Shown: positions 5,837-14,805 of the stretch, in pieces
Numbering within the stretch: position 1 is the stretch's first letter
Layout: every line of letters begins with the position of its first letter
From: Malacoraja senta
Lineage: Eukaryota
Assembly: GCA_038087875.1 (NCBI GenBank)
Contig: CM075993.1
Location: 4,652,001-4,716,000 of the forward strand
Direction of reading: 5' to 3'
Length of the DNA: 64,000 bases
The notes under the pieces: model-generated
The model's input: only the letters and a program-made list of their open reading frames with translations
Told to the model about the DNA's origin: nothing
Databases searched by the model: none
Made by a program: the position numbers and the translations under genes

Positions 5837-7508
5837 AACATTGTGCGGCAGTAATGTTATATTCCTTACGGATGTCATAGGCATCCTTACACATGTCAAA
5901 GGCCCAGGCATTGACAGATACATAAAAGAAAATGAGACAAGTCAATGCTCAACAGAGGGTCATATCTCTCTCATTTCTGACGAAAATTAATAATTTTTGT
6001 AACCAAATAAACCAGTAGCGCTGATTTCAAATGGGTGCGCAGCCAAAACAGGTTTCACTGTTAGCATAGGCTAACATCTGGGATTAGGATTGGAAATGAT
6101 ACCTGCAACAGGGCAACACGCACCATCAACCCTGGAGGATATTAAACGGTTAACAGGCTCATCTGCTTTTACTGTTCGAAGGGAGTGGCAAACAAGAGAA
6201 TAATGGCCAATCTTTAGTCTGAGAAGTTCAGTTTAAGAGTGGTGCGTAAACATCTCAGATCAAACAGTTAACTGTTACGGGTGTTGTAAGAGGACGATTT
6301 ACAACCAATTAGTTTGTTTTGAAATGCCCTCTATGACTGCATGCAAGGAGGAATTCGCTGAAAGTTAACTGCTGCAGGAGTCAGACTAATGTCTGAATCG
6401 CTTCTATTAGGCACAAAAACACTGTTTAAATCCAACTCATACTCGCACTTAAATTGTTTGAAAAATAGCAATTACTTTGTTATTTACAAATTACACAGTG
6501 ACACTCTCATCTCACAGTTCCTGATTGGGGGTTGCATTGAAAATTGGGGGAGTTGGAAAAATTAAAAACCAGAAAAAGCCTAAAGGGTAAAAGATTGTTA
6601 ATTTTATTCAGTGAAATTTTACAGCAGATGTAGTTTTTATGAATGTCACTGTTATTGTGAATAATCTCCACTCAACAAGATGACTATTAACTAGTTAATC
6701 TTTTTCTGCTGATACTGGACGAGTCTGAATGTCGGCCGGGTTTCTGAGAGAAAAGTCTTCTCAAATACTAAGTTTGTTCAGTTGGTGGCACTCTTGCCTC
6801 TCAGTCGGAGATTGTGGGCTCAAACCACATCCTGATATTTACATTGACATTAAAGTGCAGCAATGAAGAAGTACCATACTGTTGGAAGATGGCATTGTTT
6901 GATGAGCCCTTTGCTTATTCTGATAATAGTTCCGATTCAAAGTAGAGCAGGAGGTTTTGCTAGTGCCCTTTTCATTTTCCCACACTGACACACCAAAAAT
7001 AAATTAATTGGTCACAGCTGTTTGTGCCTTTAACCTGGATATATTCTTCTGTTATGCAATTGCAGTTATAGAGTCATGCAGCTATACAGCATGAAAACAG
7101 GCCTTATGGCCCAACTCGTTCTATGCTGCTCAAGTTACCAAAATCAAACGTCTCTAACATGCCTCGCCTGTTCCATATCCTTCCAAACCTTTCCTATCTA
7201 TGTATCTGGTCAAATGTCTTTTAAATGTGGTAATTGTACCCGCCTTTACCACTTCCATTTATGCACCGCCCACTGTGTGATGTAGTTGCCCCTCAGCTCC
7301 TCTTTAAATCTCTCCCCTCTCACCATAAACCTAAGCGCTCTAGTTTTTGACTCCCCTATCCTGGGCAAAAGACTATGGCTATCCATTTTATCAGTAATTC
7401 TTTGTTTGAGGTAACTAGATTGGCCCTAAAAGGTACTGCACAAAACTAAATGCTTTGTTTTCTCCCATCTAACACAAAACACCGTGACAATTTCAAGACC
7501 AACTCAGT

Positions 7509-7709
7509 CTTCTTCTTCTTTCATGTCCATCTTCCATGTTTCAAATGTTGACATCGCTGTCATCGTCCGTCCTGAAAAGGACGCGGGCTTCCGGCGACAA
7601 TCAGTGGGAGCCATCACTTGTTGCAATAGATGATGGTGGTAGCAGAATTAGCTCGGGTTACTTCCAGTTTCCAGCCCCGCGACGTGGACGCTTCTGCTAT
7701 GGGGGCCGC
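7509..7709 (-). mobile_element. Short non-coding retroposon (family H2) with 5' HDV-like ribozyme and (GAA)n tail
   Basis: 10-bp TSD ccaactcagt at 7499-7508 and 7710-7719. Minus-strand tail GAAAGAAGAAGAAG. CpG-rich, with internal hairpins (CGTCCT-tttc-AGGACG; CCATCA..TGATGG). Confidence 0.85.
7640..7707 (-). ncRNA. HDV-like (CPEB3-like) self-cleaving ribozyme motif
   Basis: Minus strand: P1 GGCCCC(C), A, P2 TAGCAGAA, P3 GCG, L3 TCCACGT, P3' CGC, P1' GGGGCT, P1.1' GG, 19-nt P4 region, C-TAA, P2' TTCTGCTA. G1-U wobble and catalytic C (7651) are present. Confidence 0.85.
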
Positions 7710-9548
7710 CCAACTCAGTAGGCAGGTCTATCATCAGAATGGCGCCACAGTCATGAGTAACTCTGTTTTAGCACGCATTGTAGATGATTATATGGTCACT
7801 TTGTAATCTCGTCTCATTTTGTCCTCCCATTTCCATGCTATGTGTTTGTTCTTTAATAGTAACCTTGTTACTTCAGCAGTTGTAATCTTCGGAATGTTTT
7901 CTGGTAGAACAACAACTTTGGGAGTCACTGGAATCAAACAAATGGAAACAGGCATTCCCATGGTAGGGAATTGTTGAGGCGAATAGTGTGGATGCATTTG
8001 AGGAAAAAAAGCAAAAGAATGGGGAAAGGAGAAAGGGACAAGAGTCAATAGTGTTTTATTGTCATATGTCCCAGATAGTACATTGGAATTCTTACTTGCA
8101 GCAGCACAACAGAATATGTAAACATAGTACACTGTAAACAATACAATAAACCAGAGAGAAAAATAAGTTATTTTTCAGAAGGATGTACTGATGTTAGTTA
8201 GGTGAAGTGCACAAGGAGGAAAAAAATGCTACAGGAAATAATGGAAGGCAGACAAACAAGTTGGTGTTGTAAACTTCACACAATTCTATGTAGTGTAACT
8301 TTCATCATGGTTTTAATTTAACTAAATATGAACATATACTTTTATAAGTTTTCATGGAATGACGATTATTTCTTCCCCATTGCCAAGCACCAGACAAATC
8401 TAATCTTTATTTACACAACTCCCACTGAGGTCTCTGCCAACCTGAAAGTCACTCACTTAAAAGTAAACAAGGTCAGCATGGTTAACTTAAAGAAACATTC
8501 CCTTGCTGAGGAAAGCACCCACAATTTATTTCTTACAAATTTTGTCAAGAGCACAATAAAAACTTGCATCGCAATTTATCTGCAACAATGCTGTTACAGT
8601 CGCCCTTGGGTTGATGCAGAAGGCAGCCAGCAGTGCATTAACACCACACTGCAACAAATCTTCGTTGGCGATAGTCGCTGTCCAATTTTAATGCAAGGCA
8701 AATGTAGGACTGATGATACTGGTATTTTTGCTGACAATCTTTTATTTGTCTCTTCTTGTGCAATTCATGGTGGAATTGTATTGGGCAAAGTTGACATCCA
8801 ACAGAATTAGCACTGGTCTAATAAAAACGTACCCAATTAAAAAAAGGTGTATTCCTTGCATGCAAAACTGAAAGTTATATTACATTTATATTACCAAAAT
8901 TATACCTCATGGCCTCTTGAAATCTATGATATAATAAATGACCGACTTTGTTCATTGAACATGAGGAAGACCATCATACTCCTTGTTCCCCTTTTTGAGC
9001 TCCCTCATTTTCTCTGTTTGAATAACATTCTCACCACACAGAGAAATCAACAAATTTGCTATATATCCTGGGAGAATATATACTGCTGCTTAGATAAAAA
9101 ATAGCTTGATGCTAAAGTATTGGATACAGTCCTAGGCTTCTCCCCAGCCAAGTAGAAATTGCCTGACAGCAGTTATGAATGATCTGAGGCATCTCGAAAA
9201 GTTATGACCACGGAAAGGTGTATGTTTAAATGGTCAGAAGGCAAGCTGAAAATAAAAAGGGGGAATTTTTGATTCCTGCCAGCTTTCACAAGTCTGGGCA
9301 GCACTCGATATGTGCCCCTTAACTTCCTGTTGAAGGATGACAGTGGCCATCTGCTAGTATCTATTGCAGCACAAGGATTGGAAAGGTTCACAGATCAATC
9401 CTTGATGCTTGGTATTGGCTGAGCATAACCAATTCAGTGGAATAAAATTCTCCCAGACTTTGACGTGGATCGGGCAGTGGCCAGCACGGAACATCCTGCA
9501 GGCTCTGCAGGACAAGGACTCGATGGATCTGGTGGGTTGTTCACCTAA

Positions 9549-13937: not shown

Positions 13938-14805
13938 CTGATGACACCACTGTTGTGGGACGTATCACTGATGGGGATGAGTCAGAGTAGAAGAGAGATC
14001 GAGCAACTGTCCATATGGTGCCAGCACAACAACCTGGCCCTCAACACCAGCAAAACAAAGGAACTGATTGTGGACTTTGGAAGGAGTAGGATGGGGACCC
14101 ACAGTCCCGTTTATATCAACGGGTCGATGGTTGAAAGGGTCAAGAGCTTCAAATTCCTGGGCGTGCACATCTCTGAAGATCTTTCCTGGTCCGAGAACAA
14201 TGATGCCATTATTAAGAAAGCACATCAGCGCCTCTACTTCCTGAGAAGATTACGGAGAGTCGGTTTGTCAAGGAGGACTCTCTCTAACTTCTACAGGTGC
14301 ATAGTAGAGAGCATGCTGACCGGTTGCATCGTGGCTTGGTTCGGCAACTTGAGTGCCCTGGAGAGGAAAAGACTACAAAAAGTAGTAAACACTGCCCAGT
14401 CCATCATCGGCTCTGACCTCCCTTCCATCGAGGGGATCTACCACAGTCGCTGCCTCAAAAAGGCTGGCAGCATCATCAAGGACCCACACCATCCTTGCCA
14501 CACACTCATCTCCCTACTACCTTCAGGTAGAAGGTACAGGAGCCTGAAGACTGCAACGACCAGGTTCAGGAACAGCTACTTCCCCACAGCCATCAGGCTA
14601 TTAAACCTGGCTCGGACATAACACTGAACTTTACTAGCCAATACTGTTATTTGCACTTTATCAGTATATTGACCATTGTGTATATATTTATAGAATGCCT
14701 TGTAGTAAATGCCTACTATGTTCTGTTGTGCTCAAGCAAAGCAAGAATTCCATTGTCCTTCCAGGGACACATGACAATAAACTCACTTGACTTGACTTGA
14801 CTTGA
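13938..14805 (+). mobile_element. 5'-truncated Rex1/Babar-type LINE (RT C-terminus, frameshifted, 3' UTR, (CTTGA)n tail)
   Basis: ADDTTVVGRI at ~13938, then the frame with WCQHNNLALNTSKTKELIVDF...FKFLGVHISEDLSW...KKAHQRLYFLRRL (ORF 13941-14621). Tail acttgacttgacttga. Confidence 0.85.

Follow-up and report, generated by a model that had tools for sequence, protein, structure and literature searches.

A short repeat in the genome of Malacoraja senta raises the question of how a ribozyme known from a mammalian intron comes to stand at the head of a mobile element. The CPEB3 ribozyme is encoded by the mammalian Cpeb3 gene and, in the passages of PMC10919898 that concern it, is counted among the very few self-cleaving RNAs of mammals, with more than 100 million years of conservation and a link to memory in mice. 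Excerpts of PMC8256844 describe it as highly conserved among mammals and give HDV-like ribozymes six invariant nucleotides only. According to excerpts of PMC6765202, PMC7761336, PMC7936874 and PMC3774820, HDV-like ribozymes head R2, RTE, Baggins and L1Tc elements, where they free the RNA from a co-transcript, and some non-autonomous elements also use them. Here, we report a CPEB3-type ribozyme at the 5' end of a retroposon, called family F, found in a 64,000-nt stretch of DNA (the window, meaning the whole stretch analysed), together with sister families A to E from the same genome.

The copy in the window lies on the minus strand and has the following parts, numbered along the window.

7509..7709, minus strand: family F copy, a non-autonomous retroposon of about 195 nt, recognised by its 10-nt target-site duplication (TSD) and genome matches
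7710..7719, no strand: TSD on the element's 5' side, CCAACTCAGT, same as 7499-7508
7499..7508, no strand: TSD on the element's 3' side; with 7497-7498 it makes a 12-nt duplication with one mismatch, adjoining G1
7640..7707, minus strand: HDV-fold, CPEB3-type ribozyme head of about 67-68 nt, from the RF00622 match and covariation across six families
7707, minus strand: G1, with cleavage predicted by the fold between 7708 and 7707
7702..7707, minus strand: P1 5' strand, GGCCCC, pairing with 7673-7678
7673..7678, minus strand: P1 3' strand, GGGGCT (alignment columns 30-35)
7692..7699, minus strand: P2 5' strand, pairing with 7640-7647 (8 bp)
7640..7647, minus strand: P2 3' strand, read from the sequence and the six-family pair counts
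7689-7691 with 7679-7681, minus strand: P3, GCG/CGC, 3 bp, enclosing L3
7682-7688, minus strand: L3, TCCACGT; the core of P3 and L3 is the best-conserved block of the six-family alignment
C7687/C7686 with G7671/G7672, minus strand: P1.1, 2 bp, CC/GG, read from the sequence
7652..7670, minus strand: P4 region, a weak irregular stem in family F; 7658 deviates in the window copy
7651, minus strand: candidate catalytic C in J4/2; behind it come TAA and the 3' strand of P2
7529..7639, minus strand: element body, in which no RNA gene or tRNA was detected, with a small hairpin at about 7568-7583
7509..7528, minus strand: 3' tail, GGACATGAAAG(AAG)n, the presumed recognition or priming end for the reverse transcriptase of a partner element

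P1 has six pairs and sets G7707 opposite T7673, a G-U wobble at the predicted cleavage site. Every part of the nested double pseudoknot first drawn for this locus (P1, P2, P3, P1.1 and the candidate C) was found as drawn. The 20-nt core occurs once in the window at ≤3 mismatches, with 0.00 expected (100 shuffles). In an alignment of 17 sequences, conservation is at least 90% in the column of C7651 (C57 of the first row), and four columns of L3 are invariant; since C7651 aligns with the C that precedes GAA in the Rfam consensus, it would be the catalytic cytosine.

The insertion measures 201 nt, from 7709 to 7509 on the minus strand, and lies between two copies of a 10-nt direct repeat. This repeat is perfect (CCAACTCAGT on the plus strand, at 7499-7508 and 7710-7719) and is the sole direct repeat of ≥9 nt in 7470-7750; it brackets 7509-7709 as the original prediction of a TSD-flanked retroposon had proposed. 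The distance of 2 nt then given between G1 and the duplication holds for the 10-nt repeat only, as the 12-nt reading with one mismatch adjoins G1. The element end reads GAAAGAAGAAGAAG (7522-7509). The C-run of P1 has one C more (7701) than in 27 of the 28 other parsed copies, and all contigs from four public runs have other letters at 7658 (P4), 7585 and 7586, which makes the window copy a slightly deviant member of its family. ARAGORN detected no tRNA in 7400-7820. On the best overall explanation, which we regard as very likely, the window copy is a dead-on-the-spot non-autonomous non-LTR retroposon with neither a protein gene nor a polymerase III type head. Elsewhere in the window, 13941-14621 (plus strand) holds a 226-aa open C-terminal fragment of an unrelated LINE, whose relatives (RVT_1 and PF09004) are named from teleosts, a catshark and Xenopus.

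Family F is dispersed through the 1.94-Gb assembly. The 201-nt query returned 2076 first-look candidates, 40 of which were scored, at 95-100% identity, and the window copy's 15-nt core has 452 exact occurrences, against 3 for a reversed control; the expectation of further genomic copies was thereby borne out. Thirty family F copies were fetched, two of which duplicate others, leaving 28 independent copies. A duplication is recognisable in 24 of the 28 (only 6 nt long in two of these) and in three there is none; the remaining copy, with a variant head missed by the pattern, was unparsed in the TSD search. With TSDs in 24 of 28 and copies this numerous, the claim of a mobile family held. The duplication adjoins G1 in 19 of the 24 copies and is 1 nt away in three, 2 nt in one and 3 nt in one, so two independent criteria, the fold and the duplications, agree on the first base. 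All but one of the 28 other copies start GGCCCCA, the exception (L019) having a substitution in the C-run; these 28 parsed copies comprise 26 listed with ribozymes, along with L011 and L021.

Flanks vary between copies, hence family F is not site-specific. The contigs of the four public runs also part from one another at the element ends. TSDs, many dispersed copies and an 18-nt tail in common with a LINE are the marks of a non-LTR retroposon. The description as SINE-like fits only loosely, because no classical SINE head (tRNA, 5S or 7SL) was found with ARAGORN and Rfam; a tRNA-like head, considered as a candidate, was rejected on the empty ARAGORN result.

Among the fetched loci, L001 on contig C3554 equals the window copy with identical flanks (compared with 7400-7820) and is probably an assembly duplicate or haplotig, and two others are segmental duplicates of each other. 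In contigs of runs X1, X6 and X17, positions 7512-7582, the 3' ~70 nt of the element, stand behind other upstream sequence, which makes them a 3' module common to another repeat family. The sole run on record as RNA, among 23 contig runs, holds only this 3' module joined to another sequence. Contigs break at repeat borders in any case, so their starts and ends say little about RNA 5' ends.

At least five further families with a CPEB3-type ribozyme are present in the genome (A to E; 30 RF00622 loci fetched). Family A is an autonomous LINE, in which the ribozyme head is followed by a 1014-aa open frame (L062) with endonuclease domains (PF03372 and PF14529) and RVT_1 (PF00078). The element measures about 3.1 kb from head to tail; its tail lies within about 35 nt of the stop codon and ends GACACGAAAAGAAGAAGA, and one copy lies within an 11-nt duplication. 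Two copies of about 3.1 kb, with the frame behind the ribozyme, are apparently intact or nearly so.

L062 4130-7174, minus strand: apparently intact or nearly intact LINE copy
L061 281-3103, plus strand: apparently intact or nearly intact LINE copy

Relatives of the family A protein at 45-63% identity are named from amphioxus, sea urchins, psyllids, aphids, moths, a crab, a tube worm, an Antarctic fish and the lizard Anolis. Elements of the RTE clade are about 3.2 kb long and have a single frame for AP-endonuclease and reverse transcriptase; their very short 3' UTR closes with a simple repeat. Going by architecture and named relatives rather than a tree, the family A LINE appears RTE-like. The LINE protein matched two metagenome loci at 85-86% identity, both truncated and lacking the head, and a degenerate core pattern matched 0 stretches of metagenome contigs. 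A search with an alignment of 13 proteins gave six loci in prokaryote-labelled assemblies, none with a ribozyme match at E≤1.

Family E is a second SINE-like family, of about 175 nt, without P4 and with a tail ending GATAAGAAG.

L051, L053 and L057-L060, locus positions about 1501-1690: family E copies, with TSDs of 8-12 nt in five of the six by reading

Its start lies one position inside the aligned P1, the first pair being G-C and the usual wobble U unpaired, which does not fit a simple G-U wobble rule. In families A and E, the divergence from the flanks likewise falls where P1 begins. Of families B, C and D, only heads beside truncated LINE copies were encountered; family C was considered as a free-standing element of about 100 nt, and this was rejected, its copies being heads that adjoin truncated LINE copies on the opposite strand.

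The LINE tails end ACACGA..(AAG)n, and that of family C ends (TAA)n. The LINE tail at L039 (family B), GGACACGAAAGAAGAAGA, is identical to the last 18 nt of most family F copies, and families F and B both have CTAAT in J4/2 and ACCACC behind P2'. These short matches point to a family-B-like LINE as the likely partner of family F.

Support for the fold was sought in 17 heads (4 F, 4 A, 2 B, 2 C, 1 D and 4 E), aligned with MAFFT; the rows are related to one another, and those of the window copy and family D, each one column off, were kept at the cost of a few cells. P1, P2 and P3 are paired in 94.1% of 288 cells, compared with 41.8-55.2% when the 3' partners are slid by 1-3 columns. Both sides have changed in 8 of the 18 pairs (46 cells), four of which are P2 pairs. 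The observed paired share, double-change cells and covariation score were reached by 0 of 500 shuffles, and the number of pairs with double changes by 26 of 500; the count of further pair types was reached by 489 of 500, so that measure lends no support. Between families, P1 and P2 covary. A GU wobble is present in the seven rows with letters at columns 1/36, as well as at 2/35 in the family F rows. The sequence of P4 differs among families A, B, C and D; the stem is weak in F and absent from E. The L3 C and the G behind P1' occur in family F only; the other families have T and T there, so only family F has the 2-bp P1.1, which counts as one event. Folding without pseudoknots gave family F no energy excess (z +0.76 for the window copy and +0.60 for L004), and nested minimum free energy folding recovered P1, P3 and P4 in families A (z −1.79) and C (z −2.25).

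These observations suggest a life cycle in which a source copy would be transcribed within a longer host or read-through transcript, and the HDV-fold head (the first ~67 nt) would cut just 5' of G1, leaving an RNA that begins at the element's first base. The proposed cut draws on the fold and on where copies begin. The 3' tail, GACACGAAAG(AAG)n, would then serve the reverse transcriptase of an RTE-like LINE in the same genome for target-primed reverse transcription, a step expected to leave TSDs of 10-12 nt; the tail match and the TSDs are both observed. Copying to the end of the RNA would recreate the ribozyme head in each new copy, and the head is seen in the copies.

The same copies could belong to a SINE-like repeat of the ordinary kind, in which transcription initiation fixes where the RNA begins and the head is an inactive fossil or serves another role, such as protein binding or the start of translation, as proposed for LINE ribozymes. 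The RNA of any retroposon begins at its first base, so copies starting at G1 would also be expected if transcription began there, and family E lacks the wobble pair. Against this, Rfam and ARAGORN found no head of the tRNA, 5S or 7SL type, the column of the catalytic C and the L3 core are conserved, the fold predicts the same first base as the duplications do, and the helices stay paired through changes on both sides in six families, which argues for selection on the fold. We therefore give such a repeat little chance of being the right description. Family F is, with a high degree of confidence, a retroposon probably mobilised by an RTE-like LINE, with a predicted self-cutting head that is homologous in sequence to the CPEB3 ribozyme.

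At least 10 of the 30 RF00622 loci hold an inverted head (G1 to about +95..+130) that faces, head-to-head, the variable 5' truncation point of an RTE-like LINE copy on the opposite strand.

L035, L038, L039, L042, L046, L048, L049, L052, L054 and L056, around locus position 1500: inverted-head loci

A duplication of 10-13 nt encloses five of the seven composites tested; since it encloses the whole composite, head and truncated LINE were inserted together. Twin priming is known from human L1, and the inverted heads resemble its products, with the second primer here landing about 100 nt from the RNA 5' end. If this is true, these elements would often leave an additional, inverted copy of the ~100-nt head where a truncated insertion meets its junction, and such copies would multiply free-standing ribozymes, the raw material for domestication. 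L052 also contains a repeat that we take to be typical of sharks and rays; along with the named relatives of the unrelated LINE fragment at 13941-14621, it speaks for a non-mammalian genome with fish-type repeats. At L033, positions 1670-1796 form a near-perfect hairpin of about 127 nt within a LINE copy; its matches to several microRNA precursor models, found on either strand, stay below the cut-offs, and it probably represents a small inverted-repeat element.

How far these heads are related to the mammalian ribozyme was assessed with Rfam. The E-value search covered 7450-7780 (331 bases), where the window copy matched RF00622 (CPEB3_ribozyme) over the full model length at 32.8 bits (E 3.7e-7; 7641-7717, minus strand). 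The curated cut-off of RF00622 is 35 bits, which leaves the copy 2.2 bits short; as 32.8 bits is below 35, a scan of the whole window at the gathering threshold gave 0 matches. Four other Rfam matches in 7450-7780 have E-values of 1.8 to 7.2 and none is HDV-type. No other HDV-type family matched at E≤10 in 7450-7780 or at E≤1 in seven sister loci. The covariance models thus bore out the original prediction of a hit: CPEB3_ribozyme was the sole credible match (E 3.7e-7), though below the 35-bit threshold, and the other HDV-type models went unmatched.

Sister loci score higher. The seven reached 37.2-61.3 bits on RF00622, and a genome search that scored 59 of about 102,000 rough candidates listed 60 matches, with 39 at or above the cut-off and a top score of 64.2 bits; sister families thus exceed the cut-off by up to 29 bits, one of them with the same P4 stem as the mammalian ribozyme. 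None of 14 control genomes had an RF00622 match above the cut-off. The CPEB3-type 15-mer of P3-L3-P3' has 1004 exact occurrences in the genome, against 0 for its control.

The window copy has the fold of the CPEB3 intron ribozyme and is nearly identical to it in P2, P3, L3, J4/2 and P2'. The P2 5' strand, P3, P3' and P2' equal the Rfam consensus, L3 and J4/2 differ from it at one position each, and 39 of the 48 aligned positions outside P4 are identical (hand count). P1 is unlike the consensus in sequence and self-complementary nonetheless; compared with the CPEB3 ribozyme, family F has a P1 whose sequence is inverted yet pairs, a P1.1 of two pairs and a weak P4. Family C shares the sequence of the P4 stem with the mammalian consensus, and also P1 and P2, whereas family F shares P2. 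L042, a decayed, 5'-truncated family C copy, agrees with the consensus in 54 of 67 positions, among them 14 of 18 in P4 (hand count). The earlier claim of a CPEB3 likeness beyond the fold was therefore upheld, given the nearly base-for-base match in P2, P3, L3 and P2', the sister families at 37-64 bits and a P4 common to one of them.

Convergence would account for this likeness if any compact HDV-fold ribozyme looked alike, and L3, P3 and J4/2, being near the active site, are constrained; the P1 of the window copy is also unlike the CPEB3 consensus. The shared sequence extends, against this, to parts that are free to vary, namely P2 in family F and P1, P2 and P4 in family C, and neither the other HDV-type Rfam models nor the 14 control genomes (above the cut-off) gave a match. 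Because P2 and P4 vary freely here and the fold has six invariant nucleotides, common descent is the best explanation for helices that agree in sequence, and the dispensable P4 stem common to family C and the mammalian consensus also favours common descent over convergence. We consider convergence extremely improbable. By these comparisons, the head of the window copy appears clearly related to the CPEB3 ribozyme, as a homologue in sequence and not in fold alone.

The two differ in setting. Passages in PMC10919898 and PMC8256844 place the CPEB3 ribozyme at a single intronic locus in mammals, whereas the heads described here belong to repeated mobile elements; the window copy lies in a repeated element whose flanks differ, and not in the single mammalian CPEB3 intron that defines RF00622. 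Their relatedness in sequence suggests an origin of the mammalian ribozyme as the head of an element of this kind. We infer the direction of descent, from retrotransposon to CPEB3, from the position of the head, which occupies its functional place in an autonomous element belonging to a widespread clade, and from the single intronic locus of the mammalian ribozyme. Capture of a host CPEB3-type intron ribozyme by a retrotransposon would reverse that direction, and the comparisons made here are unrooted. Capture is harder to reconcile with at least six families, among them an autonomous LINE, that carry the head in functional position, or with relatives of the LINE protein (45-63%) that span amphioxus, sea urchins, insects, fishes and a lizard. 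In the excerpted texts, HDV-like ribozymes stand at the 5' ends of invertebrate RTE elements (PMC6765202, PMC7936874, PMC3774820), and the CPEB3 ribozyme is described for mammals only (PMC10919898, PMC8256844). Capture is, in our estimation, unlikely. We think it reasonably probable that the CPEB3 ribozyme is a domesticated RTE-type 5' head, with autonomous and non-autonomous relatives still present, and recently active, in this fish-type genome, with P1, P2 and P4 inherited and with inverted heads as the raw material.

The arrangement itself has precedents. In passages of PMC6765202, PMC7761336 and PMC3774820, known retrotransposon ribozymes come first in the element, with the cleavage site at its 5' end, as predicted here, and the elements they head lack promoters of their own and depend on co-transcription. 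The heads reported here differ in being of the CPEB3 sequence type and in a vertebrate, with other HDV-type Rfam models unmatched. R2 SIDEs (PMC3414825) and NARTc of Trypanosoma cruzi (PMC3383444), as their excerpts describe them, are short and non-coding and join a 5' ribozyme to the 3' end of a partner LINE, as family F does. Unlike them, family F is not site-specific and has many copies (2076 first-look candidates), and what ties it to a LINE is the head type and an 18-nt tail. The excerpted text of PMC8233481 makes no mention of origin, retrotransposon or fish. In the literature searched, no paper was found that links the CPEB3 ribozyme to such elements or reports it in fishes; Ruminski et al. 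2011 and Webb et al. 2009 may bear on this. Sanchez-Luque et al. 2011 is said to cover ribozymes at retrotransposon 5' ends.

The mechanism, with HDV-like ribozymes at RTE 5' ends and short derivatives of such elements, is thus already known; since the kind of system is known, what is new is the link to CPEB3. Family F adds a vertebrate, high-copy example of a ribozyme-headed non-autonomous retroposon, and the presence of CPEB3-type heads on mobile elements of a distant vertebrate makes the question of the origin of the mammalian ribozyme testable.
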